Positions 2,688 to 61,399 of a DNA stretch of 64,000 bases are shown here, in pieces; position 1 is the stretch's first letter; every line of letters starts with the position of its first letter. The DNA comes from Moniliella sp. 'wahieum' (taxonomy: Eukaryota), in NCBI GenBank assembly GCA_003971905.1, contig RSEE01000125.1:1-64000 (forward strand), in the 5' to 3' direction. The notes under the pieces are model-generated. The model was not told the DNA's origin. It searched no databases and saw nothing but the letters and a program-made list of their open reading frames with translations. The translations under genes were made by a program, and so were the position numbers.

Positions 2688-5600
2688 GGCACAAGTGTCA
2701 GGTCCTATGTCATAGACACTGCAGCAGTAATGAGAGCTACTACACCTCCTTCCCAGTCCCCTCTGCCACATGGAATTCCACTCTGCCGCGCGCGAAGTTA
2801 GAGCCGAGTGCCCCGTCGGGACCACAAACGCCACGAGAGACTAGCAATGCTTACTCCCCGTCGCCATGCATTAACAGCGCTCATGATGCCTATATAAGTG
2901 CTAGCCTAGTTTGCGAGCATCGCGGTCCCCACCCGGATGGCCAGAGTGCGCTCTTGACGAATGGACCGATGGAGACGCAACCTAGTACTCACTGAGTACG
3001 GTCGACAGGGCCAGACTCAGGCAGCACCGTGGCCTGAGCAAAAGGCGGTGGAGGGCGATGCGGTTTGGGGCGACACAGCAAAGCCCGCCAGGCTGGCCGA
3101 GTGGATCGCGGTGGCGCCCACGGATGGGCGCTGCACGAAGCACCCACCAGGCGCCACACGACCCTCTGGAAAGACCAGTAACTCAGCGCTTCGCCAAGTC
3201 GAGCGAAATAGAGAGAAAACGGGCGGGGGACGAGACATGGTGAGAACATCATGGCTCATGCGTGAGATCTGAGAACAAGAGAGCGAAATGGCGCGTGCGT
3301 GGCTTGGGTATTAGCGCTAACTTAGCGCTTAGCTGTGCCGTAGATCACGCGCACGCATCACACACCACGTGGCATCAGAACCGTGGGGCACAGCCGCCCT
3401 GCTCTTCTCGGACCGATGATCGGACATTGATCGGACATTGATCGACGGAGAATATAGAATCTGAGATGGACCTCGCGTGTCACATGTCACATCGGACATT
3501 TGTGAAAGGCTTCTTAGACCATCAATCAGCGATCCCCGATCAGCGACCAGCACCCAGCGACCATGCATCTATCAGCGCACAAGCCACCACCATAGCCCAC
3601 CCATCAAGGAAGCACGTCCCCCTCAAAGTATATATGCCACCCGCATCCCCGAGAGTGCGTTTTGGTGTGGCTTGTCGACGGCAGCGATGCGCGATTCGAG
3701 GAGTTGGTACGTGGAGTTGGTGGTGCATGTCGGATCCTTTGATAGACCCCGCAGTACGCGTTGGTGCATGTCATCAATTCGCCCTGGCCCTCCCACCCGC
3801 TCTTCTTCCTCTCTGCCATCCGCTTCGTCTCTTTTGGCTCATTACTTTTCATCATCCATCTTCACATCTACCTCCGCATCCACCCCCCTGCCCCCATCTA
3901 CCCACGCCAACACTGATGCCGGGCACATGCCCTATTTAGTACCCCTCATCATCGACCTCATCCGTCATCATGTTGTTAGTTGACTCAAGTCATCTCTCCG
4001 ATTCGGCCCGACCTGTCGTCCCAGGTCAAGGTCCCTGGGCCGGTCTGTCTCCCCATATGCAGCCCTCCTTCAAGCAAATGGAAGACCAGATCTGTCTGGG
4101 CAGCATCAGCCGATGGGGGATCAATCTGTTTTCGTTTTGTCTTTCACTACTGTCTGCCTTGGTCGTGCAATGGCGCACTGCACTCCACCTTGTTTGACCT
4201 TGTCTTCGCAGCAGTGCTATGTCAAGTAATTTGAGCCCTTCGGTGCCTGTTAGTTGTCGCTCGCACTCTTTTTCTCGCCTTGGGGTTGTGGGGGTTTTCC
4301 TTCTTGTCTTGTGGATCCTCTTCTCTCCTTACTATACGTCCAACAGTAGAACAAACGTCGTTTCGTCCTCCTCCTCCTGTCGCCGCATCACGTTGTATTG
4401 AGTAGCGGAGTCTACTATGCAAGGCAAAAGAGGGTGGGTGTGAATAGCATTGTACCCGCAAGGGGTCATTCTACTTCTATGCAAAATAGGGAAGAGAAGA
4501 AAGTAACCCGAACAAAAAAAAAGTGTAGATTGATCGTTCTATCCTGCGCCCATGCCGATGGGCTTGCAAGGTAAGTTCCAGTGCGGCAGATTGAGTGATT
4601 TGAAGTGGATCGGAATCAGCGTTACGAACCGTCAATGCTACATGGATACAGGACACGGTAACCATTTTCGCCGTCAGCACCTCCTTCCCCCGTTCTTTGG
4701 GCCTCCACCACCTTCAGTCAAGTTTCACCACTCTAGTATGGGGTTCGCTCTGTGATTGGTGGTATCTTGCCGGCCCACAGCCCCGATCGTCACCACGGGG
4801 CAGGGGCGTGGTTATGTCCAACGCATGTATCTTTATCAGCTCATGTAGTATTAATATCGTGATGGTCTCGTGGCTTCTCGATATTACACACAAGATGTGT
4901 GGGTTCAAGATTGCCCAGTAGTACACGCTTGTGCCCAAGACAGCCCGCCCAGTTTGGAGCGTTGTGGGTGCTGCCTCTGCGTGCGATCGTAGTTAGCATG
5001 GTGATTTGCCTGCGCTGCTCACAACAGTTCCCGATTCGTCGTTTATGCTTGGACACGCTCGGGGGGAGCTGAGCTATGCAATCGGTCAAAAAGGCTGGTG
5101 TTTAGCAGCAAGAACGTGCACCAGGGCATTTCTGCCTGGAGCCCCACTCAACACCATATGTCGAAGAGGTGGATGAGCCGCTGGCCCATTATTAGACGTT
5201 CACGCCGAAGAGGCTTAAGAGGATCTTGGGACCTACCACATGCCTGCGGTGGTGGCGAGCGATTTGCATACGTTCGCTATGACTATATTAGTCTGGGGTG
5301 CCCTCCCCCGCCCAAGCAGTAACAGAAGATACGAAGGAGGATGACATCTACGTCCCGGTATCCCCCTTGCGTCCTCTCCCCCTTTCCTGCGTCACCACAC
5401 GAACCTCAGGTAGTTGTTATACCGACCATCGACGATGGCCCCACGATCAACAAGTATGTCTGTTGCCGTTGCCCCGAGTGTATTACCCCTCAGGGCGTGG
5501 ATTCTTTTTCCCAGTAAAGAGGTTTGTAATGTATCCGGCCACACTAGGTCCCATACTTATAGCTGCTGGTCCTGTGCGTCCTTCTTCTGGTCCTGGGGGG

Positions 5601-11370: not shown

Positions 11371-11469
11371 TGACTTCGCCGGGCTCGAACCGGGGACCTT
11401 ATCCGTTAACGCACGCTGCTAGGAGCGTCGTGTTAAGGATACGTGATAAACCAACTACACCACGATGCC
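11371..11469 (-). tRNA. tRNA-Val(AAC) with 25-nt intron
   Basis: Reverse complement GGCATCGTGGTGTAGTTGGTTTATCACG-TATCC-TT-AAC-A-[CGACGCTCCTAGCAGCGTGCGTTAA]-C-GGATA-AGGTCCCCGGTTCGAGCCCGGCGAAGTCA, followed by TTTTT. One acceptor-stem mismatch and a short T-stem may be sequencing errors. Confidence 0.9.
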
Positions 11470-13399
11470 ATTGGGTCGACTGTTGGGTTGAATATCTCCC
11501 GTGGCGCGTAGCGTGTTCACGGACCTACCAGTCAGAATCAGGACAGAGCAAGTGCCCCTCGACGTACGCTTTGCTGGCCAAGTACCCGGTAGACGTACAC
11601 CAGGCAAGTGTACCAGTGCATGGTGCGGCTGAGGAACGCACGTATACACTTGGCGCCTCCTCGCTGTTGCACGTGCCGTCTGTCGGCGTAGGCATACTCA
11701 GCAGTCACTGATTCAGAAATGTTTTCTACGACGTGCTGCCCCTGGTTTGTGGGATCCAGCGTCGACCTCGTTCTCGCGCTGCTGTGAGACTAATCAGCCT
11801 GTATCCCAGCAAGGCTGTGGAAGATTTTATCCCTTACCAACCCCCCATCTTGGTGATGGCGGTGATGCTTGATGAGCCCCAGAGAAGGGGCTCTCGATGC
11901 CGCTTGGTTCCTTCTCCTTCTGTTGTCCTCCACATCCTCTAGGCATTCTGGGTGCACGCAACATCATTTTCACTTGCCTCTTCCTCATTCATCTCGTCAC
12001 CGTGTGTGTCAGGTTGTGACGACCACCGGCGGTCGAGTAGCGGTCTCTGGAAGAGAGGGGATTCCACCCTGTTACCCCGCTATCGCGGAAGGAGGGTCGG
12101 CATATATTCTCAGGTGGGGCTTTATCAGCATGTCCGCCCAGAGAATCCTGTGTCGGGGTTCAAGTGCAGTATATCGCACCTTTGCACTTCGAGAGTCGAG
12201 CGAGAGCGAATCGGGAGCGCAGATTAATGAAGCTAGGAATTCAAGCGCACCCACAGCGATGCGAGCGCCGATTGCACCGCTTCGAAACAGACATCAATGA
12301 AGATTCTATGGTACGTCTGGTTTGCCAATGGAGAACAAAAGGAAGTATATGGTCAGGGTGCGGTCTATATCGCGTCGGGGCACGCACGGTTCTACCTTCC
12401 AGGCCCACATATACCCTAAGCCCGACCTCACCTTTTTTCGCCCGAACACAGAGCACAACCGAGAGGTTTCGGCCCCATCGTGCTCCAACTATTATTTTCC
12501 GCTCCGCCCCCTGTGAGGCCTGATGCTACTATTACCATGAGCAAAGGCTTTTCCGGTATGGCATCTCATCCTCTGGCGTTGCCGAGAAAGTAGTTATCTT
12601 CCCCCTATATAAAATCACAGTAAAGGACTTTCAGCGTCGAGCCCCGTCGGGAATAGGATGGGGATTAGCGCTTAACAGCCCGGCTCCACCCCCACACATA
12701 TGAAGCGCATTTTAAGCATGGAATTTTCCTATGTTACTCCTTTCTTCTCATCCATCAACACCTAGACGCATGCATGCAGGACGCCTCTTCTCCCAACCGT
12801 GCAGCTTTTTGACTCGAATTGGTGGCAGCCATGTCTTCCAACAGTAAGGAACACATTATAGCCATATGAAGTCCACGGCGTTCCAAAAACAATTTTTTGT
12901 ATATGTAGTAGTGTGCTCCATTCTCGTCTCGAAGACGGCCGAATTCGTCCAAGATAGCCCATTGAGCAAAGTCCTATCAAATGACTAGAGATGCACAGTA
13001 TGGGGAATGGAGAGTGCTACAGCAAAAGCGTCGTAATCCTTTGAGGGCAGGCGGAGAGGAAGGAGAGGCGCGAGTGAAAAGGGGCAGATTGTGGTTATCT
13101 ACCTCTTTACACTAGTGAATTGGGAGTTACTAGCACTGACGCTCCCAGATTCGCAATGGCCCAAATACCATGGGAGGACAAAAAAGTCGGTACCACCAGC
13201 GTAGCACCCTCCACTAATATACTGACGCCTAAACCGACCCGTTCACCTTGCGTGTCTTGCTTGGTACGCCATACTATGCTCGGATGCATATATACGACCG
13301 CTACTGTATGATCGAAAGTCGCTCATTCCAAGTGTTTGGTGCATGTGTCTGTCATCTAGTAGTATGGAAAGAAGGCAAACCCAGTCACAAATGCATTAC

Positions 13400-14168
13400 G
13401 CAGACATGCACATCGGCAGCACATTGGCGCAACTTGAGGCTTATCAAGCCCAAGCCTGAGGTTCTCCAGCAACGGATCCTTCCCGTTGTGATGCACTACA
13501 GGTAGACCATCCGTCCTTTTGACGGTGCGGTTTTCAGCAATGGCCTTGGAGAAATGTCTACCCTCGAGTTGAGTTAGGCCCCACTTCATGGAAACGATGA
13601 TCTCCTGCCCCCTGCAAACTTGTAGCGGACACGGTGCAAGACTTCCAGCACCGCCGCCTGTGTGTTGTTGTCCTTGGAGAGGATAGAAAGTAGAGACCTG
13701 TCCATATTGACATGTTGAAGACATGTTGACATGAGAGCCACACCACAGGCCGTATGGCTTGCCCCATAATGCATGGTGCATACTGGTTTGCAGTGGAGGA
13801 GCACCGACACACGAGAGCATCTTGTTGATTCGGATCACGTGGAACGGGTGCACACGGATGCGCAAGTGTGGAAGGCATCTTTGCTGGCCGTCTTAAGCTT
13901 GAAGCTTGAAGGCGCTTGAGACCACAGGTATTTTTGTGGTGCAGATTCGCGCTGCCTCGAGCGCTTACTTCGGAAGTGATCTACTAGCGCTCATCGACAT
14001 CACACACAAGGTGGGAACAAAAGGAAAATCTTCAAGCACGTTTGCGGCCAAGTCAAAAATACGATTTTAATTGGGATCGCGGATTCGCCGGCCGTGGTTG
14101 TACCGCGATTTGGGAAAGGGCTTGTTTTGTACAGTAGCGATGGAAGCGGGCTGTGGGCGACGACTCAT
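13400..14168 (-). pseudogene. RPL10: Decayed, near full-length 60S ribosomal protein L10 (uL16) pseudogene
   Basis: Starts ATG AGT CGT CGC (MSRRP). Recognisable segments NKPFPKSRYN, RIFDL, ALEAARIC, KDAFH, RIRVHPFHVIRINKMLSC and WGKPYG. Many substitutions and multi-base insertions exceed the simple indel noise seen in neighbouring real genes. Confidence 0.85.
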
Positions 14169-16234: not shown

Positions 16235-16415
16235 GATAATCTCCTCCCATTTCCAAACTCTTCGTCCCCGGGCGTCTCGCTCCTTCTTCTTTGTTCTTCT
16301 CCTCTTCGCGTCATGTCCTCTCCTCTTGCTTCCTCCCCAGGAACGATTGCTACATCCCTTGCCCTAGTCTCGACTCTGGTCTCTCTCGTCTTAGGCCTTA
16401 TCCCCGACTGTGATA
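16235..16415. mobile_element. Diverged solo LTR, copy 1 of 3
   Basis: Clear similarity to 26277-26457 and 32467-32649 (ctcccatttcca...acgattgctacatcccttg.cctagtctcgactctggtctc...ccccgactgtga). Left terminus eroded. Confidence 0.7.
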
Positions 16416-17599: not shown

Positions 17600-20322
17600 C
17601 CTTCGTTCCGCCGACGTGTACCCTTCCTTTTTGACCAGTATTGCAAATAAGAGGCACATAATGATCAAGCTGATCCAGCTAATAAGCTAGGCGGTGAACT
17701 TTTTGACTTGAGTATAGAAAAGAAACATACAGTTGCGGGAGGGTCAGGAGAGATCCCCACAATCTGCATCAACAACCCTTTTTTATTGGAGTTGGATTAT
17801 GCCATGGCGCACCCTGCCCTTCCTGGTGGACAGGGGTGGGGCGTGCAACACATTGCATTTCGGTCATCATGTGCTGCATCATGCATCATGACCATGCGCG
17901 GTTGGTCATCTGCGTGGCCGTTGAGAAAATGCGCATTATACCACTTAGCGGTTATACTTCCCAAACGTGGATATATGGACGTGAGCAAAGGGAGACTACA
18001 GACAGGCCGGTGAAAACGTATTGGGCCAGGACTCGCTGCTATCCTTCGTGGGGCAAACGCATCGTCTGAACAAGCTTCATCCCTTGTGCGAGCGACAGTG
18101 TGTACCGCGTTGGAAAAGAAGATAGCAATGCAAAATAGTATGTTAAGGCATCCAAGAGAAGGTAAGAATCCACCGGCACCAAAAGCTGGATCCAGCAACA
18201 CAGTGATCATGGCCCATATTGCCCAGTTTCTGACCAGCAACAGACGCAAAAAGCGTTGGCCGGTGGAGCAGACGGTATACCCTTTCAGAGTGCGGATGAG
18301 TGTAAGTGCTTTCCGGTAATCTCTGTGGTTGGTTCATTCCTAATTCGCCGCAGTTCCAGCAAAAGCTGCGCGTACCGATGCCCCCCGTATAGATTGGACG
18401 GTGGGATGGGTCAGCGCAGATGGGGAATAGGTATTACCGGCAGATCACATTCAAGTAACCCTGCCATGCAAGACACCACTGATGGAGCATCGTTCTTGGT
18501 GCACAGGAGTGGGCGCAATGCTTTTCTTCTTGAGGGTGGTATAGAAGGCGAGACTGGTAAAACAGAAAACGGTCGCGATGTGCAGGGAAGGTGAGGGGTT
18601 GCTTAAACGAAGGTGCTGACCTGGAGAAAGAAGGGTGGTCGCGAGAGTAAGCGACATCAGTCTGGAAGAGGTAGAGCCTTCAATCCTCTGGACGGGGTGG
18701 TGAAGGGGGAGGGGGAGGGGAAAGGGAAAGGGAGGAGGAGGAGACTGCAGCTATTAAGGAAAGCTTGAGTGGAGTGAGGAAACATATGGTATGCGATTTT
18801 GGATTATATGCATGAGGTGCGAGTGTGAAAAGACCAACAAGGCATATTGAACTCAGGAAAAGAGAATGGATAGATGGAAACAGGATCAGGAGCAGGCCAT
18901 GCCGGTTCTGGTCGCCAAAAGTCTCGCATTGGCTCTTCAGTTGGGAGATGAGGGCCCAGGAAAGGTACAGTGAGAGGTGGGGTCACCGCACCTCCATTCA
19001 GGGAAGGCCAAAGGGCAGGCTTGAGGGATTCATTGCCCCCGCACGAAGTGGTGGGGGTATTAGAGAAAAAGAGCGATGCCGGGGGGTCGGTGAAGGACTC
19101 GGTGCAGCTTGAGGCAGTGGTCGGTGAATCGAGAGACGGAACCCCTCCCAAAGGGACGGATAAGGGAAAGACGAAAGATGGGTCTGGAACAAAGGTTGCA
19201 AGAAAGAGCAGAAAGGCCCTGGGTCGGAGGCCAAGGCGCCTCGGTGGAGAGGTGAAGGTTGAGTCCTCTTGCTCCTCATCAGGCAAGGCCTGCACCAGCC
19301 CTGACCCACACAGGACTTGTGAAGAGGGGCGGGCATATGCTGTGCCGGTAATGTTCGGGAGGGAGAGACGAGGTTTGAGAGACATGCTAATATCCTTCCA
19401 TTCGAAGCCGAGGGGCTGGTGCGGGTTTCTTGTGGGTAGCTCCTCGCCTACCGTGATGGGGAGGGGCCCAAGAACGGCATGTGTACTTTTGCTTGAGCCT
19501 GGGGACATCGCAGTGCTGCCACTAGACAAGAGGGGTGGCTTGTGCGGGGTCAGGGTGGGTACTGCGGCGGAGTGAAGGTGAGGCTGAGGGGTGTGGTCTG
19601 GCCCGAGTCGGGGGCAGAGTTTGGAGTGAGACTAGGCGCGACCGAGGGGAGACCAAGGAGATGCATGAAGGCTGGGCTGCAGTCGTCGTCGTACAAGTTG
19701 TGTCGGCAGGACCGGGGGAGTCAAGCCATTTCTCCTCTACCCCACTCGACGCACCCGTGGCAAGACCCGAATGCGGCGGGGAGTGCGGACGGGAAGGGGA
19801 ATGCCCAAGGGGCGTGGAAGACAACGTTGAATCGAGCTCGGGGCTGTAGGGGCAGGGCGCGGGGGCAGGGAATGCCGGCCCTGGGAGCGGATGCGTTGGC
19901 GGTCGTAGGTGCAAGGCTTGTCGGGCTGGGACACCTTACACCTCTCGCACGGCCGCCTCCGTCGCAGCGGACCTTGGCGCGGGCGCAGGCATCGCAGGCC
20001 TGGAGATGCGGAGCAGGCAGAGCGCTCGCGGGTTGACATGGTGCGCAGGTTCAGGTGCCGTCTCTTTTCCTGGTCGACATGCATGCGGAGATGGCGCTCG
20101 AGGACATCCTTGCGGCCAAACCGCTTGGAGCAGACGCTGCAGCCAAACGGGAGGGTGGGAGCGTGCACAGCCTGGTGGCGGGCGAGGTAATCGGGGCGCT
20201 GGAAGACCTTGTGGCAGGTGGGGCAGACAGGGGTGACGCGTGCCGGCGGCGCGGGGCAGCGCGCCTAGCACCCGCACGCCGTGGTGCTTGGCGGGGGTGG
20301 CGGCGGTGGGGACGGGGGACAT
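17600..20322 (-). CDS. Fungal transcription factor with two C2H2 fingers followed by a Zn(II)2Cys6 cluster; 3' end uncertain
   Basis: CPTCHKVFQRPDYLARHQAVH and CSVCSKRFGRKDVLERHLRMH, then a frameshifted ACSA..LRC..RPCERCK..PCTY cluster. Ser/Pro-rich coding-like sequence continues to about 17.6 kb. Confidence 0.8.
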
Positions 20323-20499
20323 GGGGGGGCGGTGGCGGCGGCGGCGGGCGGGGTGGGCAGGTGGGGCGAAGGGGTGGGATGTTAATATACGGGCAGGAGG
20401 GGGTTGGGAAAGCGAGGATGCACGGGGGCAAGAGTGCTGGCGTGTGCCAGGGCTAAGCAGGCGGCCGGGGGCACCCTACAGAGTGCGTGCAGGCCGACG

Positions 20500-23400
20500 C
20501 ATTCTGAGGTCTGAGATCTGACGCGCTGGCGTCTGATCTGAGACCAAGTGCCCTTCCGGCCCCTGGGCGGGGGCACTGTCGGAAATGCACCGGCTGCCAA
20601 AACGAGACTGCGGCGACTGGCGAATGCGAACGCACCCTGCGACGCCCAGTTAGAGGCGGGAAGATTGTTATTGAGCGGGTGCGCTGGGCCTGGGCAGCAT
20701 TGTTTCCGGACGGACTCACGTTTGCTCAGTACTATGTACCCCGTACCCACTGAGTACTGAACGTACTGAGTACTGATTCAGTACTGGGGGCTGCGGGCTG
20801 GGCCTCAGCCTGAGGACAACATGTCTGGGCGTTCACATGCTCACATGTTCACCACTAGCAAAAGAGTTTTGGGTGCCATCGATGATCAACGTTCAACGTT
20901 CTACCTTCGACGTTCAGCTAGTCCCTATTCAACGTACCATGTACCAACGTACTCTACGTTAACTCCTGCCTTCATTTTAGTCACTAGTCACTAGTCACTC
21001 CCACCCATCCGAACGAGACGGCAGATGGACAGCTGTCACGCATGTCACGGACCTGGCACCGCAGAAGGCAATTATACGGGTAGCGATTATCCGGTAATAC
21101 ATCCCAGTACCTCTACTACCTGTGTCCAGGGTTGGATCCAGTACGCAAAACATGTGTGAGTACACACCAGAGAGGGTACGATGAGTAGGCTGCACCACTG
21201 CCACAGTGCAATGAGTGCTGATTGATACTGAGGCCTGAGGGGTCAGTCCGATGATTTGAAAAGTTGATATATACGGGAGCTGCGGATCAGGCTGTGTTCT
21301 GAGAAGGTTACACGTTACGACGTCGTCTTCAGGGAGGCGTGGCTATAATAGCCACTTCCTAATACTCGTACTAAAAAGTCGGAATGACCAGTGACTTGAC
21401 TCGTGATTCTCGTGGGCACCAAAACAGGGACAGCTGGGAATACGGATGGCGACGGAATTCGTATCTGGGGCGGTGCCTTGCAGTGCCCGTCCTCTTTCAA
21501 CCCCGGCACATAGGATGCATCACGCGTCACGAATGCCCCCTCTCTATTAAGTGGTGACTAGGTGACTAGTGACTGTGATTAGTGACTGTCTTCAATCAGT
21601 GACTCGACTGGTTCAAGACTCAAGCTTCAAGCGCCCAAGCGTCAGCGCTGCTCAGACCTCACGCGAGTGACGAGCTGCACTCCCTAGTCACTTGCACTTG
21701 CTCAGCGGATCAGCGCTGAGGCTCAGCGGCTCAGCGGGCGCAGCATGTCATAGATTTTAAGGTCCTTCAAGGTCTCCAAGCTTCAGATCTATCTCAGATC
21801 TCAGGATAGCTGCCGAGAAACAGGCCACATAGGTTGGTGACCGGTGAAGCTGGAGGCCCAAATCGTCGGAATGTGGCTTGAGGAGCTTGAGGGACTGCGG
21901 TAGGGACCCGCGCGTCAGGGTGCCGGGACGCCCGACACGCGACAGGTTTCTCTGAAATGATCCAGGTGATCAGTGACCGGTGATCTCTGATCATCGATCC
22001 GAGATCATCGATCAATGTTCAACGATTAATTATTTCGATTCAATATTCATCCGATGGGAGGAAAGAAAAACGGGTGGTTATATTCTCCGGTCTTGGCCTT
22101 ACCGGTTCCCAGTTCCGGGCTATATCGTGGTGTTCAGTGAACTTCAACGTGCAACGGACGTTGACGTTGATCGTTGAACGTAGGTTGAACGATGATCGTT
22201 GACGCGTTGACGGAAGTGTCGGATATCTACGTAAGCGCTAAGCCTCTTAGATATTATACTTCTTCCTCTGCGATCTGATATCTGACATTGTTGACACGTT
22301 GACAATATTGACCTGGTGCATGATAGAAGCCTGAGGCGGCTCGACGGCACGTTACCTTGATGCGTGAGCGCGTGAGCATAGCCTGGGTTAGGTGGCTGGC
22401 GGAACAACACCAACGCGGCGCGCGAGGAAGAAGGGAGAAGGGAGAGGCAAGAGACAGGGAAGAACATTGAAAATTTTGAGTGAAGGGAACCCAGCTACTT
22501 TTATACCAATCCTGTTGGTCGGCTCGGCACGGCGCTGCTGGTCGAAGAGGAGGTTTTGGGACCGGCCTATACTGGCTAGCAGAGTGATGGCAGCGAGAAT
22601 GCCTTGCCCGATGGGCTGGAGGCAAACATGTAAACGTTAACGGGGTGTGAATGGCAAAAAAAAGCCCCCAACGGATACTGGTGACGCGCGGTGACGTATC
22701 GTAATCGAGTAATCCCCAGCGGCCTCAGCGCCTCAGCAGGCCCATCGACCTCATCGGCTTTATCGATCAAAAAATGGTTAATGACCATAAGGTGATAACC
22801 TCGTGGTGGTCACACGCTTGTCTACCGTTGTACCTTATGCATTACACCACATGCATTTTTGGTGTGGAGCAAAGGCGACATGTCCGATTTCAGAAGCTCA
22901 AGCCTCCAACGAGAGGGCTCGCATGCACACAGATCAAAAGAAGCACTCACAGAGCAGCAACAGTACGATCATTAGCATGTTTAAGTTAACCACGTTTACG
23001 TTTCCGGGCCGAAGTAATTGCGCACAGGCATGTTGTGATCGTGATCCTTCACTGGTTGTGTTCTGGCAATCGTTTCTCAATGGCGTGCCTGTCCTACACA
23101 GGGCGTCTATAGCTGCGCCTACGGGAGAGAAAGGAAGAATGATTAATGAAGGGTCGTTGTCGCAGGGTTCTCATGTGCAGGCGACAGGCTGCAGTGTCAA
23201 CGGGACAACACGCACCAGACGATGCATGAAGCTGTAAGCTTTAAGCTTCAATCTCAAGCGTCAAGCCTTCTGGCGCAGCAGGGCGCAGCCAAGCCCTGCT
23301 GAGCCCCACAACCTCACCATAACGCGTAACGCGCGTAGGTGCCCTTCCTGTGGTCCGAACAGGGTGGGCTTGGTGATCGTGATCCAGTACACGTGACGCA

Positions 23401-25560
23401 TGATGTATGATAATCGATGATTCGATGATATGCAGGATGCTTTAGCACTAGCGGTGACCGGTGACTGGTGACATGGAACATGGGACAGGCGGGAGAGATC
23501 CAGCGCTGAGAGACAGACCCTGGCCTGGCAGTCCGCAGCCAAGCGCAGGCTATAGGCACCCGGCTCCCCCGCCCGAGCAGGCCGAGCGCAGCAAGGCGCA
23601 GCCTGCAGGGCACAAGCACCCAGTCTATTTGTGTATAGGTGTACATACGTCTGCACATACACCATGGGCTGCACTCGTACGATTCGCCATACATACCAAC
23701 GTGTACTAGGTACTATTAATGAGTAGTTTTAACGTTTTTGGCTTTTGCATTTAACGTTGTGAATAACGTTAATGCCATGCACATTCACTAACACTCGAAC
23801 GGGCCTCCAGTACGCCAGTGTGTGCTGCGACTCCGGAGAACCAAGTCTCAGTGTGTCTGACCTGTGCCCGTCGTCCGAACGCACACTGCCCATCCGCCCG
23901 AGGGGGATGCTGTTGGCTAAATTGGTTGTCTCATATCTCGGAGCAGACGCAGGAAGACGTTTTCGTGGGCGCGAGGGGAGAGGGTTACGTACGTTACCGG
24001 GGTTACCGGTTCCGGTTACCGGTTATGCAGTACGTTGCACATGGATGATCGATTGGTATCGGTCATGCATGTAATGCATGATGGATGTCGATGATCGATG
24101 ATTAATGACTAACCGATTATCGATTAAGTAGCTTGAAGCTGGAAGGGGAGCCGAAAGGGCACAGAACGTATGACATGTGACATGTGACATGTGACATTGA
24201 CGTGCGACATGTGACATGTGACATGCGACATGGGACCGGTGACCCGTTACCTGTCATGCCCTTGGCACGTGACGCGTGACTAGCTTGACTGTCCCATGGG
24301 CGCGTAGACTACAGGCGTCCAAAGTGTCCGAGTGCCTAAGTGCATAAGCACCAAGCGCCAAGCCCCATCGTAAGAGTTAGAACCAGCATTTTTTCCCCAA
24401 TCCTATGGGCTCAAATACCTTAAGTCTCATGTATCACGCGCGACCTGCGGTTTCCCCCGCATTGTAGGTTCTGACGCGTGACGACTGAAGACGCGGAGGC
24501 CTGAGGGCCTCAGTACTGAGACTCAGTGCGACTGGTGTGTTGCAGGAAGCACCGGGGAACCTGCCGCTCAAAGAAGCCTCAGCGAGGGCTGTGAAATTTG
24601 AAAGACCAGAAAAGAGTAGGCAGTTGAACGTTGAACGTTGACTAACGATTTCAAGGTATAAAAAGGGAGATATATTCACGCATCGCTGCTAGAGTGCGAC
24701 TTGGGAGCACTCGGCGATCCTATGGTTCAGCTGCCAAGGCGTGAAGGCAAAGTGGTGAGCCGCATCCGTCTTCCAGCAACGTCTCATTGCGAAGAGCAGC
24801 AGGCCAAGAAGAAGTGTACCTTTAGACAAGGCGTGAAGCTTGAAGCTTGAAGGCAAAGTATAGTGAGCGCGAGTCTTCAGGCAACGTCTGAAAGGAAGGA
24901 GAGACAGGAGAGACAGAGGAGCGGCTTTTTGCGAAGATGTATAGGGGGTGCGCATCCTGCGATCGGAACTCTTCCTCCCGCCCAGGAGAGCGTCACCGAT
25001 CAACTTGAGGGTCGTGCAGGAGAACCCTAGCACTATACCACCCAATAATAGCATGGCACGTACATCGGATGGTATACATAGGTGGATAGGAATATTCCAG
25101 CCTACCAGAAGCAAGGGATATCGGAAGAAGTGAGCCGTTATGCATTAACCAGGCTCTTGCGCTACGCCGCTGGTCCAATGTAATGGCATCCAAATAGTGA
25201 GCACGCTCACTATACGTAGTATTTTTTCGTATTTTTAGGTTGTTCTCAAGTTGGGATGGGAAGCGTGTTCCTTGAAGCTTGAAGCTTGAAGTGTTCGCGT
25301 ATTCCCGGGTCACCGGTCAATGTCGATGTGAGATCTGATCGCTAGTCTGAGCGCTCTGGTCGATCTGAATCCTCAGCGCGTCAGCAGGCAGACTCTACTT
25401 GTCGTGAGAGTCTGGTTGGAGAGCACTACGATTAATCAGGGGTTTGATTGTTCCACATTTAGGGCCTTTACGGCCTAAGGCCTAAGGCCTCTATAAGGGC
25501 TGCAGCTTGTTGATGTGTGATGCACGATGCGTGATGCATGATGCATGATGCATGATGCAG
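20500..25560. repeat. Dense field of (TNA + 4-bp palindrome)n heptamer microsatellites
   Basis: TGAGTAC (~20750), TCAACGT (~20886), TCACTAG (~20981), TGAGGCC (~21229), TCAGATC (~21794), TAAGCGC (~22232), TAACGCG (~23320), TTACCGG (~24000), TGACATG (~24171), TGAACGT (~24625), TGAAGCT (~24834, ~25273), TAAGGCC (~25476), TGATGCA (~25532). Confidence 0.9.
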
Positions 25561-26276
25561 ATAATACAGGCGGTGGGAAGAGCGAGTGAGTCACGCGTCT
25601 ACTGAGAGTTTTGTGTTTCGACACATCGATGCATCCCCGCGATTACTTCTCCATCTTCAGCGCCTCTTTTGCTTATTAAAGAGCTTCGGCTGATTAAGCT
25701 GATTCAGCTCCAAGCGGGGCAGGCTGTATGCATCGACTCCTGCCGCGACAGCGCTCCGTCCAGAGCGACCCGTTGGCCACACCCGCTCTCGCTCTACGGA
25801 TTACCGGTATCATACTCATCAGCCCTCCGCGTAGCCTCTTCTTCCGATGCACGCCACTGGTTGCTGTGCCTCAACGCATCTCACACAGTAAGGTGTCATC
25901 GCTATTGTGTGCTACCATGTGCTTCTTGGCAGAAGAGACGTTAGTAACGCGTACCGCGGCGATGCTACAAAGAAAGGTTATATAGAAGGCGCTCGGCCGA
26001 AAGAGCCAACAGCGCAGCTGTGGGTCCTGAAACAGCAGTTGAGGCCCTTTCGACTTTACTCGCACGCTCATCGAAATCAGGCATTCATGGCGCTCATAAT
26101 GCTCATAGCGCATCCATAGTGTGTTTCTCCGGCCTCCGGCCTTTCAGCAGGCTCATTGTCTCATGCATACTTGTGTATATACTGTGCATATGATGCTTGG
26201 ATGACAGTTTTGCCAAGCTGTTAGGAGGTGTCTGGAGGAATAGGGGAACATGCTCTGTTGAACGTTGAACGTAGTC

Positions 26277-26457
26277 TGTCATAGTTTGGCTGATCTCGCT
26301 CCCATTTCCAATTTCTTCGTCTCGAGCATCTCGCTCCTTCCCTGTTCCTTCCACTTCGCACCATGTCCTCTGTTCTTGCTTCTTCCCCACGAACGACTGC
26401 TACACCCCTTGGCCTAGTCTGATCCTGGTCTCCCTCGCCTTAGCCCCGACTGTGACA
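26277..26457. mobile_element. Solo LTR, copy 2 of 3, with a perfect 5-bp target site duplication
   Basis: Begins TGTCATAG and ends CTGTGACA (TG..CA inverted termini). Flanked by TAGTC at 26272-26276 and 26458-26462. Confidence 0.9.
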
Positions 26458-26899
26458 TAGTCGATTCATTATACTCACGAAGTCTTGCTTCCCAAAGCTA
26501 CTATGCACCAGGCACACAAGAGAGCTAAAAAGGGCCCGACGTATAGTTTAGCACGTTTAAACCTCTTCCACTTGAAGCATCTTCGCCAGATTAGCCCTAC
26601 TATCACCTCTTTCTTACTGAAGGAGGAGAATGCAGGAGAAATAGCACATGAAGGAGAAGCATACCAATGCCAAGCGGGTCGGACTCCATTACTTCCCCTG
26701 CGAAAGTAACCACCTTTTTTAACGAATGATGATATGGCTTGAGGAAATTCTTACCGTGAGGGAAGCTCGCAGTCAGCCTCTCTCCATCTGTTGATCACCA
26801 GTGGTCTAGAGCCCATCGACCTTCAGTGACACGCAGCCCGATGCACATAGTGCAGGGGGGCAGTGAGCTTCGGACGTTCCATGAGCTTCCACTGGCCTC

Positions 26900-29800
26900 C
26901 AACCCAGGAGCCTATCGAAGCCCATAGCTCTAGCTCTCCTTGGCTCTTGAATGCCATCTTCATCCCTCATCGCCAGCATCGCTAGCTAGGCCTGTGACAC
27001 CATCTCGAGTCTTATTTTCTCCATCAGCATACCTTTTCGAGATACTGCCATGCATGGCTTGACTGTTTTGATCCCTCTATTCCAAAAGTTCTCTGCCTCG
27101 CTCCTAACTGAGAGACTTACTCTGTTTTTTCCGTCTCTCTCCATGTCTCCTCTCTGCTCTAGTAGCTTCTCCTTTACGCACGATTGATCCACCCTCCACA
27201 CTCGGGTCTCGGCTCTGGTCCCATTAGCCTTGGCCTCCACCGGCTGCGATATTATCGGTCGTCATAATACCATTAGACCAGAGATGTCTGCGACCCCCAG
27301 GCCCCTCGATCCATTGGGTGCACAACCCTAGCGCGCCGTACGCCAGCACGCGTATTTCGGTCCCCTGCGACCCCCTTCCAATCTTTTGTTCGAGCTCCTG
27401 CCCAACCTTCCGTTCGACACTAGCCGACGCTCCGTTCGATGACGATGGAAAGAGTGGTACCTCCCAACTAACATCTCTGTGACCTCGCGGGGCGCTCCGT
27501 CCTTTTACTAGCGCGCACCTGCGGTTCCTATACGGGCCTGCCGCCGAGGTGGCGGGCTTGGGCCTTGCGGTCGCCCAGCGCCAGGTCGAAGAAGCCTGCA
27601 GAGCTGCCGGAACCTCATCAGAATTCGGGTCCGCCTTTATGCCTAGGAGGACCAGCACTGCGCGTTCCGGACGGATCAGGACACCAAGCACCATAATCGT
27701 CGCCTCCGCTATGACAGAAGGAGAGGTGGATAAAAAGGCTCGGCTGACCATTTTCGCAGATGAGATCTAGAGTGGCATCCCGATTGCCTGTGGCCCTCAC
27801 ATCCATCATATGGGCGACGTGGCCCGGATTGACAACTTCATGGACTTCTGTTGCAGAACGAGGTTTTCCCTTGAGTCCAACAGTTCGGCTCGCACTGCGC
27901 GGGTGAAGGCGCCAACCAGGCCCACACGCCAGTATTGACCTGGGTTTCTCTGCCATTCACCGGACGCGTACATCGCGGCCAAGCATCAGCTTCGCCTCTC
28001 TCCTCCCGAGCCCGATCCCAGGCCCATACATCTCAACTCAGCTACCTTCTACGTCGAAGCGGCTCGACCCGCACCAAGCGTCCGTGTTCAAGATGAGTGC
28101 TTTTACACTAGTCGGCTCCGCGAACACCTCTTTGCCAAGTACTCCGCCTTCACCTCGCCTCGTCGCCTACATTATCCCGGCTTTGATGCTGTTTGAGCCG
28201 GCCGTGGTGTCCTACTGCTCGTCGCCCCTCGCGGTCTTTCGCGGTAGTCGTCCACATGCATACTAGCTCCACCTTGCCGTCTCTGCAGTATCCCTCAGGA
28301 TCCTGTGGGCACTGTCTTTTTGATCAAGCTAGGGTCTAGCAGCGTTCGAATGGACCATGGCTTTGACTTGGGTTCACAAATGCTGGCGTCGCACTTTTGG
28401 TTGTGAAAGTGGTCAATGGACGCAGCATGGCGTCGCGTCTGGTGACCCAGCAGGCGTTGGAGGCGTCCATAGCGGTCGATTCCCAAGTCTCGGTGGGATT
28501 TATCCTCGTCTCCCTTCACCATCTCTTACTTCATTTCCGAGTTCCCCCCTTTCTTGAAGACGACGGCAACCCCAGTACCGCCTATCCTTATATTGATAGT
28601 GCACGGCGCAAGGCCCAATGTCCCAGCTAGGTCTCTCTCGTGCCTGCTCCCCCGATCCCTCCACCTCCTTCGCTCCCTTCCTCCTCTGCGCCCCGCCGGC
28701 TCGTGGTATGAATTTTTGCCTCCCAGTCTCTTCCTCCACCCTCGGGCCCGAGCTCTTCCCTGCTTCTGCTGCGACGTGGGGGTCATAGCTTGCCTAGGCT
28801 GGTGCTATGTTGGCTCAGGGGTAAATTAGGCGGGTTCATACCATCATCGCCCGCGCTGCGCCTGCGTCCGCCTTTCCCGCTCCCCTTCTCTGCAATTGGT
28901 GTCCTGTCTCTCCACCCCGGTTCCGCTCTTCGGTTCTCTGGCAACCTCGACCCCGCTCACTGCGGCCAGTAGACTGGCCAACACCTCTCCTGTTGACTGC
29001 ATTGGAGAGTTCCCTGTTCCATCGCACAACAGGCTTTACGAGTGAAGCGTCACTCTCTCACTCCCCCACCCCGCTCCCTCCGCTTTCTCCCTATCATGTC
29101 TTCGGCCTCCGGAAGCTCCAGCGCGGGCTGGTGCAGTTTTCTATCGCTAACCTTACGGCGGCGCTGGTCCCGAAGGGTCTCGCTGTCTCCTCCCCCACGA
29201 ACTGGACCTCGCTCGTCACCCAAGTGATGGTCCAGGACTTCGCAGCCATTCAACTCCCTCCTGACATCTCTTGGAAATCCTACGGGATCATGCCCGGGTT
29301 CTGGGGTGCAATGTACCCGCTCCCACCGATCGGGCTTCCCCCGCCACGCGCCTGGATACCGAGAACTTGACCTGGATGTGGTTAAACGATTTCAAGAGGC
29401 TGATGCGGACAGACCCTCAGTTGATTGAGACTTGCGCGCAAGCGGTTAACAAAAGGCAATGCTGCCCAAGGCGCCTCTCCGACCATCATTCACCTTACGG
29501 TCTGGGAACACCATCTCATCCTTGGCACGGGCACTTTGGGCGACTATCGAACACCCAGAAGATATCTGGCCGACGCTGCGGATAACTGCGATCCTGCACC
29601 GGACCAACATCCTTTTGGGAAAGAGGCAGTTTGAGCTGAGTCTCCTTGGAGGCAAAAAACGAGTTTGGCTAACTTATGTGCTTGGGAAATGACTCCTCCC
29701 TATATAGCGGAGGAGGCTAAGGCCTAAGGACTGTTGGCCCTTCGTCGCGCCTCCTCTCATCTGGACAAGCAGTTCCCCCACCCAGCAGCCCTCCCCCCCC

Positions 29801-30100
29801 GCCTTCCCTCTCGTCCTCATGTGGCGTTCCCTCTTCATCCTCGAGGTTTTTCTAAACAAGCTTTGGCGGGGGGGGCTGTTGTGAGGTGGGTGTGATAGCT
29901 TACCTAGTAGTGGGCTGTGGCGCCATGGCTCAGGGGCACTAGGCCAGTTCATACCATAGCTGGCGCCCCCTTTCCTGTCCTCTCCTTCTCCGTAATTGGC
30001 AGTGTCTATCCACCACCGCCCTGCTCCTCGCTTCACTAGTCACTAGTCACTAGTCACTCGTAACCGGTATAACCTCTTTCCCGCTCAGCGCTCATGCCAT
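26900..30100 (+). mobile_element. Degenerate L1/Tx1-like LINE remnants, apparently two tandem 3' portions
   Basis: Fragments TLGSRLWSH, AGLGL and GCESGQWTQH (zf-RVT-like). A ~200-bp segment is repeated at ~28780-28965 and ~29890-30098 (atagctt.cctag..ggctcagggg..gttcataccat..aattgg). Many stops. Confidence 0.45.
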
Positions 30101-31379
30101 GGCATATTTTGACTATAGTAGTCACCTCCCCTGTAGACTGCGGCGAGGTCGGAGAGTGCCCTGTGATCCCCGGCACGAAACGGCACGAATCGAAGACAAC
30201 CTGTTCTCGAAACTGGAGTATTCTTCCAAATTGGAGAGGTGACAGGGAGGAACCCAATGCTACATGCTACAGTGGATTTGGCCTACCCCGCCGAACACGA
30301 GTTGGTCACCATCTCGTTAGTCGTCGCCGTCGCCGGCGGTCCCGCCTTCATGTTTCCCACTACGAGTTAACGTACCCCAGTACTTCGAGCACCTCAGGGG
30401 CTCCCCTATGCCACTCTCTTTCCCCGGCGAAAATTAGGGGCCACTCCGCTCCTCGTCCATCCTACCGCCGACGATCACATGTCACATGCTACATGTTACA
30501 TGTCACACGCCATTGGCCTATAGTCCCCAACGTCACATCGCCCACTTTTACTCACCCTTAGGCCTTGCCTCTTGTCCAAAATGGCTCGGAGGAGAATATA
30601 GCTTCGGTGTGTATCATAAGAAGGACGGCTTGCGGTGTGCCTCCCTATCACACCCTCGGCTCGGTTAGAACCAAGAACCGTTGCACTTTGAGCTTTAAGC
30701 TTTAAGCTTTACTCTAACCTCTCTTGGGGATCTGCATTGTCGCCAAGTCCGATATCATATATCAGTGGAGCTTATCGCTTGTCCTGTTTTCTCGGTCAAG
30801 AATAAGGCGAAAGGCTGATGTCCAGTACGTCTCGGGGGCGTCGAAGCAGGCCACAAGAACGTAGCAAGAAACGAAAATGCCAACTCAGCACCTGTACCAT
30901 CATGCATGCATCAGCGCCGCCAAGAAAGCTGCGTTGTGGACAAGTTCAACGAGAGGCAACGCACGACGCTTTTGCCCTCCGGCTCGTTGCTTGATAGTAG
31001 ATGACAATGAGTTGAACGCACACATGAGCGTGCACTTTTGGGACGTTTAGAGCTTTTTCTGTCACCATCTTTCCTATATCTTAGAGTATAGGTGGGGGGG
31101 GGGGGGCATTTCCTGAAGATGAGGATCAGGAAAAGGCGCACAGTCCCTACAAAAAAGAATGGCCATACTATGTGATGTCGGTCGGTTTCGGTCCCAGGGA
31201 CGGTTCTCCACCAAGAGAACCACTCTGTATGATAGTGTTTTGCGCCATGGAAGCAGAGCACTCTGTTCGACAGACAATCTTCAACTATATAAGGGGCCAA
31301 ATCGACGGTTGTAATGAACGGAAACGAAGTTAAGAGAGTAGAGCGAAGAACTTAGCGGTGGAAGGAGAACAGGGAAACG

Positions 31380-32466: not shown

Positions 32467-32649
32467 TGTCATAGTTTGGCTGGTCTCTTGCTCCCAGGTC
32501 CAATTTCTTCGTCCGAGCGTCTCGCTCTTTCCTGTTTTCTTCTCCACTTCGCACCATGCCATCTGTTCTTGCTTCCTCCCACGACGATTGCTACATCCCT
32601 TGGCCTAGTCTCGACTCTGGTCTCCCTCGCCTGAGCCCCGACTGTGACA
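32467..32649. mobile_element. Solo LTR, copy 3 of 3
   Basis: TGTCATAGTTTGGCTG...CCCCGACTGTGACA, colinear with copy 2. Flanks ACATC / (A)TATC look like a degenerate target site duplication. Confidence 0.85.
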
Positions 32650-57430: not shown

Positions 57431-58439
57431 CGCGCTACTCAATCTCACACCATGATCTGGGATGCTTTGGATCAATGGGAAGCAACAGGTATTCCATGGC
57501 GACTTTTGTCGGAAGAAGACCCAAAGACGTCCCCAAGATTGGTTGGAGCGTCGGGATCGGATCAACGTGGCCACCATTTGATCACAAAGTTGACTGGTTC
57601 CTGATTTGTTCTAGACCCTGTTTTCCCCCTTTGATTATGCTCCCCTTCTTCCTCCTGTGACTTTGCTCGCATGTTCTCTTCTTCTCTGATGCATATATAC
57701 TTCGCCCTCTTTCCACTCGATGAATATGATCCTCATCCTTTCCCCCATCTCCGTCTCCTGTTCCCGGGGGGGAAGAAAAGCCCTCCCATTAACAGTAAAA
57801 CGCAAGTGGAAACACTTGCAAGTAGTAACGATCGAGCTGGGTGGTCCCTGTCTTGTGTCCTTTCCAAATATGATTGAGGAATGAAATCAAGGAGCAGTCT
57901 CCCATATGCGACCGCCACTAACAGACCACGAATTATAGACCTTGTGCGTACGATCTTAGAGGTCTTTGCCTTAATCCGATGACATCGAGTGAGTAGTGGG
58001 CCTTATTAATGATCGATCTTTTCTTTCATTCATACGGTGTAACCCATAATCAAAAAGCTGAAGAACTACCGAAACCGGAACTACCTTTCTGGGGGCACTA
58101 TGACTGGTGCAAGCGACCGCCTGACCCCGCAGTCGCGACTGAGGCCTGACTTTCAGAGAACCCGGTTATAACGTCATGCATTCTTCCCGATTACATATAT
58201 ATCGAGTATCGGGCTTCGTTTGCTTGCTCATTCGCCAGAAAAGTGCCACTCGTAATCAATAAGATGGCTAACTGTGTTATCGAGATACTACGGTGGGGAG
58301 TTTGGAGAGCACGGCTGGTGCCCACACTCTACTTTTCTACCAACAAGAAGAAGCCCAACTCCATGTATACGGCGTGCAAAATCGCAAGATATAGCCTTTC
58401 GTTGACAAGAGCACAGTGACTATAGTCTGGCATGACAAG

Positions 58440-60950
58440 TGGCTTAGTGAGGCCTGTGAGGCCCTGAGGCCCCTGAGGCCCTTGAGGCCGCCTGAGCCTG
58501 GTTTTGGTGGATACGCCAAAAGTGGGAGTGAGTGGTTGCTGTTGAGCCTGTGGTGATATATGATAGAGATTGCCCATTGGCAGGATTTGGCTACTGAGTC
58601 TCAATGGAAATGGTTCCTCGCTCGGATGTCAACCACGTTCATCCGTGTCCACACGCGCTACCTAGGGTACGGGACCGCAGATGACGACCATCACAGAAGG
58701 TCCTGATATCTTAGCGACTCCCCTGGTTCCTTAACCTTGGCCTTCCAAGTAACCCCCGCAAGATGAACGGTTCGGTTTAGATGTAGCGTTTCCCTAAACC
58801 GAACCGTTTCTCCTGTCCCCCTTAAGCTCGGTCAATGGCATGGATGCAGTATTATAGAGTGTGTCCTGGGGAGGATATAACGCACAGGTGCAGGGTGGCC
58901 GGTGAAGAGAATGATGATTCTGACAGGTCACGGATACGTGCTCTGTGACATACGATAGGTGTTCTGCATGCCATATGCCCAGCAAGTGTGGGTCACGCGA
59001 GCGTCAGTCGCCTTGCTAGTATAGTCGCTCTCGGTTCAAATTTATGGTACTGAGAGTACTGAGTGCCGGGTATACTCTGATCCGTGGTTCTACCGGGTCC
59101 TACTGGTCGAGATGATCGGATGATCCCTCAGCGTCTACTAAGTACTAATGCCTGTCTATAGAGCAGGATAGTGATTCTCGATTAACAATGCCAATTATCT
59201 ATTGGTAACTGTATAGCGATATCGAGTCGCTTTAGTCACAATGGTCACTATTGGTCACACATCAACGCGTCAGCTATGTATATGGGAGGATGCGGGTACA
59301 GACGAGTGCATTGCGACCATATCAAACTGTACGGAGAAGTTAAAAAAAACGAGAGCTCTGGGAGGCTTTCTAAATGGCCGAGGGGGCGTAACGCGTAACG
59401 TTACGAGAAGGGTGTGGGGAGGAGGACTTCCATCGATATCGAAAAGGCATAATGTGTGTGACTGTTGAGAGCCACGCTCTCACTTGCGAGTTTTTGAGAC
59501 GCTCGGAGGCTCGCCTGCCTCGCCAGTGACTAGTGACTTCTTCCATTCAAACTGAACACATGTATGTGTTGGGCCTCAGGCCTCATATGTCACACCAGCA
59601 CACAGAGATAATCCGGCAATTCTCCAGATGGATCGATAGCTTTTGCTAGCTACATGTGTAGATCGGGTGGGTTGCCACGCTGACAGACTGTCAGATTACA
59701 TGTTACACACACATTCAATATTCATCCCCTGGAACTTCACCGGTTCCCGGCTTCCCCGTCCGCAACCGATAGTATTGTGACTCTTTTTATCGCACCACGC
59801 CGACCCGAGCGACTCAGGGAATATGCTCTGCCATTATGCTGTATGCCACTTACGACCAGAAGCTAGTCACCTCTAAGATCTAATCATTTAATCTTCATGG
59901 ATTTTGGCACATGCGCACATCACCATGTCACAGGTAATATAGGACCCAGCCAGTGTTGGAGTGTGGTGGCATGTGACATGTGACACCACTTGATGTGATG
60001 GCTTTTGATAGATCGGCCATGTCGCTGGTAACCGGATCTGGCTATAGAGTTATCCGCGTCTCGCGCGCTCCAGATTGGTTACCGTCGCGCCTCGTTCCCC
60101 TCTTTCTTCTTCTCCGCGTTGTATTCAAAGTTGGAATAGCGTCAGGCCCAGGAGCTTACAAAAAGCTATCTCTGACTGTTCCCGCTCTGCACAGTGCAAT
60201 CGTCCGTATAGCTTTTGGTAGCGTAGCTACTTCTCACTGTTAAACGTTAACGACGACGGACAACCGCGGTTCTCGGCTCTCTCACCGTGCTCACCCATTG
60301 ATCGCGCGGTGTAGTGCTTTGCCCTGGCTCTCATTCTTTCGGCCAGGGAAGTAGTATCCGCTATCCGGTAGCATACAACACGATCTACACGAAGAACGAA
60401 CATGTAGCCCGTTTTCTATATTGTGGGCTCTCTGAGGCGCGACGGAGATGAAGTATCCACGTCACGCGTCAGGCGCGTCAGGCGCGTCAGGTGCCACGGG
60501 TGACATGGCAGTAACACACTCGCCTGAGGCCTGATCACGCGATCACGCGTCACTTGTTTCTAATTCTCCGACGTGCGCGTGTGCCTGATTGTTCCCAATG
60601 GTGTCAGGCTGTGACATGTGAGATCGGAGTCTCGTATATTTCTCCCATTTGCGCGGCTCTGTCTGCTACCCTCCCCCGTGCTATGGCCACGTTATATGTG
60701 AAACAGCATGATGTTGATACGTTGATAATCGGTCATCGATCATCGATCATCGATAACGTCAAAAACGTGGTAGTTGCGTATACAAGTGTCTGTCAGATGT
60801 GCTGGAGCCGTTCAAAAACGTTCGGTCCGCGGGGCCCAGTTTGCATCTCCACAGCCAGTTTTCTGCCATGCAGGCCTCACGCGCTCACGCCCACGAGAGG
60901 CATGGTCCAACGCATGCATCATCGATCTATTCATCATAATCATTAATCAT
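58440..60950. repeat. Second field of TNA+palindrome heptamer repeats, upstream of the OPT gene
   Basis: TGAGGCC variants (58448-58500), GTACTGA (~59048), TAACGCG (~59389), TGACTAG (~59527), TCAGGCC (~59576), TGACATG (~59974), TCACGCG (~60462, ~60535), TCATCGA x3 (~60733), TCATTAA (~60940). Confidence 0.85.
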
Positions 60951-61198
60951 TGCGACATCGTCCTTCCCCTTTATTAGTCGTGTGGCCAACCTCTGACAAC
61001 GGAGGAGGGGTATGCCCTGGCATGCCGGGCATGGTAGGCAGAGAGGCAAACTGGAGCGCACAGCTCGGCGAGCGCATCGTCATGAGTTTAGTTGGTTGAT
61101 TGGGAGTCTGGGCCCATATCGGGCAATGTGCTCTGTGTCCGGAAGCCGTCGGACTATGGACGACCCACAGTGAAGAGCCAGTCGAAAGCTAGATAGGC

Positions 61199-61200
<2 letters not shown>

Positions 61201-61236
<36 letters not shown>
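61201..61236. repeat. (GATT)9 microsatellite
   Basis: Perfect tetranucleotide array. Confidence 0.95.
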
Positions 61237-61238
<2 letters not shown>

Positions 61239-61399
61239 ATACCAACGGATTAATTGTGGATGCGCGTGGGGTCCGTTTTGCATGGGAAGCAGTAATTGAC
61301 GACATTCCGGAGTATAGCGCATCTTATATAACTTCAACCATGCCTCCCCTGGCACAGAGTTGCCCAAACAACCGCCTTCCATCTACTCACGCCCTTCTC

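Follow-up and report, generated by a model that had tools for sequence, protein, structure and literature searches.

The non-coding DNA of a 64-kb stretch of the genome of Moniliella sp. 'wahieum' (contig RSEE01000125.1, positions 1 to 64,000, hereafter the window, to which all sequence tests were confined) carries short arrays of 7-letter repeats that constitute a real, rule-bound class of insertions. These arrays are probably the excision footprints of a cut-and-paste DNA transposon acting on a 7-bp, TNA-centred target with RAG-type chemistry. A preliminary description, made from the sequence alone, had proposed that the arrays share a grammar, a TNA triplet alternating with any 4-bp palindrome. 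To count it, a unit was defined as T-N-A, a 4-bp palindrome and a second T-N-A with identical N, and 100 block-wise dinucleotide shuffles served as the null model. The window contains 87 units, against 2.32 ± 1.48 in the shuffles (maximum 7). As the description had claimed, they belong to non-coding DNA: 86 lie in the 32.5 kb of non-coding sequence, defined from open reading frame and Pfam calls, and one in the remaining 31.5 kb (p = 3e-15 per TNA site, Fisher test). The units merge into 74 arrays, comprising 64 with two copies, seven with three and three with four. The span 20500-25560, where the arrays had been noticed, indeed holds 45 units in 37 arrays, but the pattern extends across the window, with dense zones also at 29.7-31.0 kb and 57.8-61.35 kb.

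The rule is strict. In the window, 32 of the 53 perfect 7-bp tandem duplications obey it, compared with 0.1 of 5.9 in shuffles. Among symmetric triplets it is specific to TNA (87 units, versus 1 for ANT, 5 for CNG and 6 for GNC). Each of the 16 possible palindromes is represented in the window, 15 of them within 20500-25560; the any-palindrome rule thus stands, while the thirteen types listed by eye were an undercount. Palindrome frequencies match those of the dinucleotides beside ordinary TNA sites (chi-square p = 0.27), which indicates that no particular sequence is selected; palindromes made only of A and T number 8 versus 14.7 expected (p = 0.06), and no preference for G or C at N was significant in the window (p = 0.16-0.19). 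An apparent T/A preference at positions -8 and +8 was dropped as a target signal, as these positions correspond to decayed neighbouring copies in the 7-bp register. Decayed copies are themselves in excess, with spacers one mismatch from a palindrome in 37 cases versus 14.7 expected.

Two observations bear on the enzymatic process that the preliminary description had, rightly by this analysis, placed at TNA sites, and for which it offered fold-back templated extension or a transposase footprint as examples. If a fold-back copy ran through the palindrome, N would be complemented, yet the same N is seen (87 units with identical N and 4 with complementary N, where chance gives 2.3 and 2.05). Fold-back extension is thereby rejected and only two nucleotides are mirror-copied. 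The transposase footprint is supported by the junction geometry described below.

Regarding the shape of the unit, the target is written cd-TNA-ab, b'a' and d'c' being the mirror (complement) bases of the flanks. In 50 of the 74 arrays the 7-bp periodicity runs on for 2 nt or more on a single side, in 13 on both sides and in 11 on neither, and the commonest extension class, (0,2), accounts for 24. Most two-copy arrays (44 of 64) are shorter than the 14 bases needed for a perfect 7-bp duplication. Among the one-sided arrays, the far flank matches the mirror of the near flank at neither base in 27 of 50. One-sidedness, short two-copy arrays and unmatched far flanks together identify the symmetric 7-mer as a product of the event, and the 7-bp hairpin was usually absent from the target beforehand. 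The mini-hairpin unit of the preliminary description is therefore retained as what follows the first event and abandoned as its precondition. The palindrome matches a flank dinucleotide in 76 of the 87 units, and the templating side among the 64 two-copy arrays is the right in 17 and the left in 25. The event is thus cd-TNA-ab to cd-TNA-ab-b'a'-TNA-ab, or its mirror image, with a net gain of 7 bp.

Before and after states can be compared at two sites. A local tandem duplication of about 60-90 bp (24738-24800 and 24830-24890) carries an unscarred cg-TGA-ag in its first copy (24740..24746, plus strand) and cgTGAag CTTGAAG CTTGAAG in its second (24832..24852, plus strand), a gain of 14 bp. The CT of the scar mirrors AG and differs from the ancestral CG at 24740; the +14 bp requires no additional mutation under a hairpin-footprint model. 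The second site lies in one copy of a repeat resembling a long terminal repeat (LTR), where TTA-GGCC-TTA (16391..16400, plus strand, +7 bp) occupies the place of the single cc-T(T/G)A-gc found in the copies at 26277-26457 and 32467-32649. GGCC is what mirroring of the left-hand CC predicts here. With identities of only 84-87% between the copies, and two more substitutions lying beside the scar, this pair lends weak support. The LTR-like repeat itself is about 180 bp long with TG..CA ends; its third copy spans about 16239-16413, and the copy at 26277 is bordered by a 5-bp duplication, TAGTC, as in a solo LTR.

The position of the hairpin tip was derived from the mirror axis of each junction relative to TNA in the 32.5 kb of non-coding DNA. 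In 93 junctions, versus 0.3 expected, the axis is even-centred and lies two bases beyond TNA, where a 7-bp duplication would end. Even-centred axes corresponding to 5-, 9- and 11-bp duplications (arms of 1, 3 and 4) gave 5, 6 and 2 junctions, and odd-centred axes of the hAT type for 5-, 7-, 9- and 11-bp duplications gave 1, 0, 1 and 1, near chance. Target duplications of 3, 5, 9 and 11 bp were rejected. Class (4,0) comprises 76 junctions. Joints of 8 and 9 bp, as predicted by a 7-bp duplication, fall into the overlapping classes (4,1), (3,2) and (4,2) with 11, 10 and 6 cases versus 0.1, 0.15 and 0.02 expected, making 23 distinct joints. Examples on the plus strand are the 9-bp junction gcTGAtt-aa-gcTGAtt at 25689..25704, class (4,2), a full 7-bp duplication with two mirror bases, and the 8-bp junction ccTCAgc-g-ccTCAgc at 22723..22737, class (3,2), a full duplication with one.

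These features can be accommodated in a five-step scheme. A transposase would integrate at the 7-bp target cd-T-N-A-ab and duplicate it. Judging from the geometry, excision would then hairpin both flanks precisely where the duplication ends, without loss of a base, in the manner of RAG coding ends. A host nuclease would cut each hairpin 2 nt past its tip, so that one end would carry ab-b'a' as a 4-nt 3' overhang and the opposite end a second such overhang, the complement of d'c'-cd. End joining would retain one whole overhang and lose the other, giving cd-TNA-[ab b'a']-TNA-ab or its mirror (+7 bp); less often the second end would survive further, producing the +8 and +9 joints. Finally, a scar offers two TNA sites and a target that is now palindromic, so that later hits, possibly aided by slippage, may enlarge the arrays. 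Directly visible in the window are the sequence rule, the states preceding and following the event at two sites, the location of the hairpin tip and the 7-bp stagger, whereas the element itself is postulated.

The enlargement of arrays by later hits finds partial confirmation in the arrays themselves. Unlike spacers in a single 7-bp register point to repeated independent hits, as in the compound array TGA TCGA TGA TTAA TGA (24088..24108, plus strand), where TCGA at 24092 is followed by TTAA, and in the four TGA chained with spacers TCAG, CCGG and TCTC (21967..21990, plus strand). The ten homogeneous arrays with three or four copies may owe their length to either repeated hits or slippage. They include two four-copy arrays on the plus strand, (TGA CATG)n at 24171..24197, with a one-sided start, and (TGA TGCA)n at 25532..25559, with decayed copies on its left.

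To compare models quantitatively, simulations were run on scar-poor DNA of the window. The hairpin model yielded 100, 89, 78 and 66% palindromic spacers at 0, 3, 6 and 10% decay, and plain duplication only 7-8%. The observed proportion is about 73% (84 of 116 excess same-N pairs), which places the mean decay near 8%. The one-hit simulation fits the extension lengths less well: a maximum extension of exactly 2 was observed in 27 of 64 arrays (42%) versus 60-75% simulated, and extension on both sides in 11 of 64 (17%) versus 6-8%. The one-hit scheme thus has to be supplemented by re-hits, decayed third copies, slippage or a readier joining of ends at palindromic targets.

The kind of scar is itself known, whereas searches of the open literature, with subscription journals and figures outside their coverage, turned up no account of the pattern, be it the growth of arrays, the uniformity, the density, the TNA target or the exact chemistry in a fungus. 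Artemis opens RAG hairpins mainly at +2, leaving 4-nt 3' overhangs, and V(D)J coding joints (RAG1/2, Artemis:DNA-PKcs) resemble the scars in their even-centred palindrome at the exact flank boundary and in the +2 opening (PMC2175297). Unlike these joints, the scars first involve a 7-bp TNA-centred target duplication and are germ-line and dispersed. The footprints of hAT elements (Ac/Ds in plants, Saccharomyces cerevisiae and Candida albicans) are similar in combining a target duplication, palindromes from hairpinned flanks and end joining (PMC5873905). In Ac/Ds footprints the palindrome has as its centre the complement of the base adjoining the element and is thus odd-centred (PMC5873905). Among basidiomycete transposons, 7-bp duplications are described for hAT7 and Kyakuja (PMC12730594), and the fungal hAT7 would supply the right length. 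A hAT-type chemistry was rejected, as no odd-centred joint was found for a 7-bp duplication. Muta1 excision is mostly precise when a duplication is present (PMC5225508), and the available extract on Ustilaginomycotina describes their genomes as compact and repeat-poor, with no mention of footprints (PMC5751038).

Even-centred junctions argue against hAT7 and favour a clade related to RAG. The CACTA-Mirage-Chapaev-Transib (CMCT) clade, comprising EnSpm/CACTA, Mirage, Chapaev, Transib, Plavaka and ESTA, has motifs in common with RAG1 (PMC12730594) and is active in basidiomycetes, the setting considered here. Given these shared catalytic motifs, RAG-type flank hairpins would be expected of it. 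If the scars are transposon footprints, an EnSpm-like family of this clade is the likeliest source, an attribution that we make with moderate confidence. Such an element would be recognised by a DDE transposase with C(2)C and H(3-4)H motifs and by 5'-CA..TG-3' inverted ends; in the window, ends of this form inside near-identical TNA heptamers gave two candidates versus 2-4 in five shuffles. Kyakuja (KDZ) elements also fit the length of the duplication and are reported from Agaricomycotina, not from smut relatives (PMC12730594). They are marked by a 7-bp duplication, CA..TG ends lacking inverted repeats and a KDZ transposase. In the window, no KDZ match was obtained among the 223 frames scanned with Pfam.

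Several results weigh against a footprint origin and its attribution to this clade. Besides the misfit of the one-hit simulation and the blemishes of the 16391 pair, no source element was recovered from the window. The search for exact 7-bp TNA duplications with inverted ends returned six matches, all array-made or at shuffle level, and a relaxed search four, versus 0-4 in five shuffles. No transposase family was detected by Pfam in 223 stop-free frames (115 + 108), a set confined to frames of at least 55-80 amino acids and lying mostly outside the gene-dense part. The end motif CTCACTG occurs ten times in the window versus 10.0 expected, in no case adjoining a TNAnn target. From the literature, the described target duplications of CMCT elements are 2-5 bp (PMC12730594), those of CNIRT6 and CNEST in Cryptococcus being 3 bp and 2 bp (PMC12810828), and differ from the 7 bp proposed here. 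Most V(D)J coding joints are resected and lose P nucleotides (PMC2175297), whereas the scars almost always keep one whole overhang, and Ds left 28 footprint types in 128 excisions (PMC5873905), the scars being far more uniform.

An inverted pair of about 60 bp (56447-56511 and 58598-58662; 84% complementary over 45 nt at 56467/58642) showed no target duplication, and by eye none of the 7-bp TNA type. It encloses 2.1 kb with a decayed frame at 57.1 kb that has no Pfam match and looks Copia RNase H-like by motif.

The absence of an element from the window is also what an element-free version of the process would predict. A free or domesticated transposase-like nuclease, or another nuclease, would nick the strands 7 nt apart at TNA, after which the ends would be filled, hairpinned, opened at +2 and rejoined. 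This version would suit the roughly 100 scars with no element found in 64 kb, their very uniform outcome and their clustering upstream of genes. We nevertheless regard it as unlikely. Insertion followed by excision yields a 7-bp duplication with two hairpins naturally, whereas we know of no precedent for both arising in a single step. By a rough rate argument, a density of about 4 scars per kb, accumulated over roughly 8% divergence, would be within reach of a low-copy active element, and about 100 scars with no element in 64 kb would be compatible with such an element still moving.

The commonest scar, class (4,0) with its 76 junctions, can equally be read as five copied and two mirrored bases. 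It would then stem from a 5-bp duplication (TNAab) with a 2-nt template switch during replication or synthesis-dependent end joining, or from a 5-bp Transib-like element with one-sided P nucleotides. The 23 joints of 8 and 9 bp, in which d or cd recurs on the far side, are not foreseen by this reading, which also leaves the strict TNA specificity and the fixed tip position on both sides unexplained and is decidedly improbable.

Ordinary slippage, combined with selection for palindromic units as protein-binding sites in promoters, draws on the concentration of scars upstream of genes, on the three or four identical copies in 10 of the 74 arrays and on extension lengths above the one-hit model. 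The preliminary description had judged slippage insufficient, and the counts agree: a perfect duplication is impossible in the 44 short two-copy arrays, only 2 of the 7-bp duplications at TNA are plain and non-palindromic, and palindromic spacers make up about 73%, versus 7-8% under the plain model. Moreover, all 16 palindromes at background frequency are unlike a binding motif, and the 24832 pair displays a new mirror dinucleotide. Slippage is thus largely refuted for the first event and, with selection, very improbable as a whole, but existing arrays may be lengthened by it. An artefact of amplification, base calling or assembly, which the many apparently frameshift-broken coding frames might suggest by pointing to an error-prone assembly, is scarcely credible given that the scars avoid coding DNA (86 units versus 1) and retroelement-like remnants (1 unit on 305 TNA sites versus 73 on 676; p = 1e-11), that decayed copies are present (37 versus 14.7) and that paralogues differ in scar state.

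Three scar fields together hold the 73 units on 676 TNA sites of this last comparison, the remnants being three stretches labelled by our own reading. The densest (20300..26270, 46 units on 388 TNA sites) lies upstream of a minus-strand C2H2 zinc-finger gene, with a zf-C2H2 Pfam match at 19737-20264. Within 20.3-26.27 kb, 51 junctions conforming to the hairpin-footprint model contribute 371 added bases, or 6.2% of the stretch. The second field (29700..31000, 9 units on 61 TNA sites) contains a four-copy (TCA CTAG)n array at 30033. The third (57800..61350, 18 units on 227 TNA sites) lies upstream of a plus-strand transporter-like gene, presumably an oligopeptide transporter (frame at 61.3-64 kb), and an ordinary (GATT)n microsatellite occurs at its edge (61200-61238).

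More generally, the window consists of GC-rich gene-dense blocks and long non-coding stretches, and among named proteins the best match to its ribosomal protein S5 is that of Tilletiaria anomala (91% identity), which points to a smut-related basidiomycete fungus. The gene-dense, GC-rich block carries one unit on 507 TNA sites. Between 34000 and 56400, many frames are broken by frameshifts, which suggests uncorrected long-read errors; RRM and kinase families were found there by Pfam, and the frames appear to include SET-like, RBM39-like, tRNase Z-like, PP1-like and hybrid histidine kinase ones. A 3.2-kb stretch without scars (26500-29700) contains the orphan frames 27227-27766 (minus strand) and 28825-29367 (plus strand), neither with a Pfam match or a usable ESM Atlas match, and is probably a decayed mobile element. 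The frames at 14.8-15.3 and 27.2-27.8 kb look similar to long interspersed nuclear elements. A frame at 13359-13892 (minus strand), with no Pfam match at E 0.05, resembles by its motifs a decayed ribosomal protein L10e gene, possibly a pseudogene or an error-rich stretch, and a look-alike of an intron-containing tRNA gene was noticed by eye at 11377-11465 (minus strand).

A metagenome scan baited with the four-copy CATG array provided an outside comparison. It returned at least 119 loci, with flanks for 80 (476,844 bases). These loci, a control not matched by taxon, contained 36 same-N units with another palindrome (0.075 per kb) versus 78 in the window (1.22 per kb), and among the matches listed, 20 of the 119 loci had any such unit. 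Read by eye, two of them (L003 and L025) did not carry the grammar convincingly. L025 has TCA GCGC TCA TCGA TCA, a CATG array and TAA GCGC TAA within 500 bp (5278-5294 and 5374-5411) amid ordinary microsatellites, too few to indicate the same process. Heptamer arrays of a single unit are thus common and the grammar is not, a result that says nothing on close relatives.

Taken further, the scars raise the tentative possibility, in which we place somewhat less than even confidence, of an undescribed lineage of the EnSpm/Transib clade that combines a 7-bp TNA-centred target with exact RAG chemistry and near-fixed repair, and whose traffic is a major mutational process in the open chromatin upstream of genes. 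If so, transposon traffic would have written at least 6% of some upstream DNA and would seed heptamer arrays without slippage, and the A-nnnn-T palindromes stamped into promoters would be possible new transcription-factor sites. Footprints are normally studied at single reporter sites, whereas here they would form a dominant, dateable class of mutation, the 32 kb of non-coding DNA offering about 100 joints that can be read, and many thousands of products of hairpin opening and end joining would be archived in the genome as a natural library. Should the source be EnSpm-like, the scars would be evidence, obtained in vivo, that flank hairpins form in this clade in exactly the RAG manner, which bears on the origin of V(D)J chemistry, and would add 7 bp to the target duplications of 2-5 bp known for it. 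The opening of hairpins and the joining of ends in fungi would then be readable at scale, and short tandem repeats and promoter palindromes would be reachable by a route that does not start with slippage.

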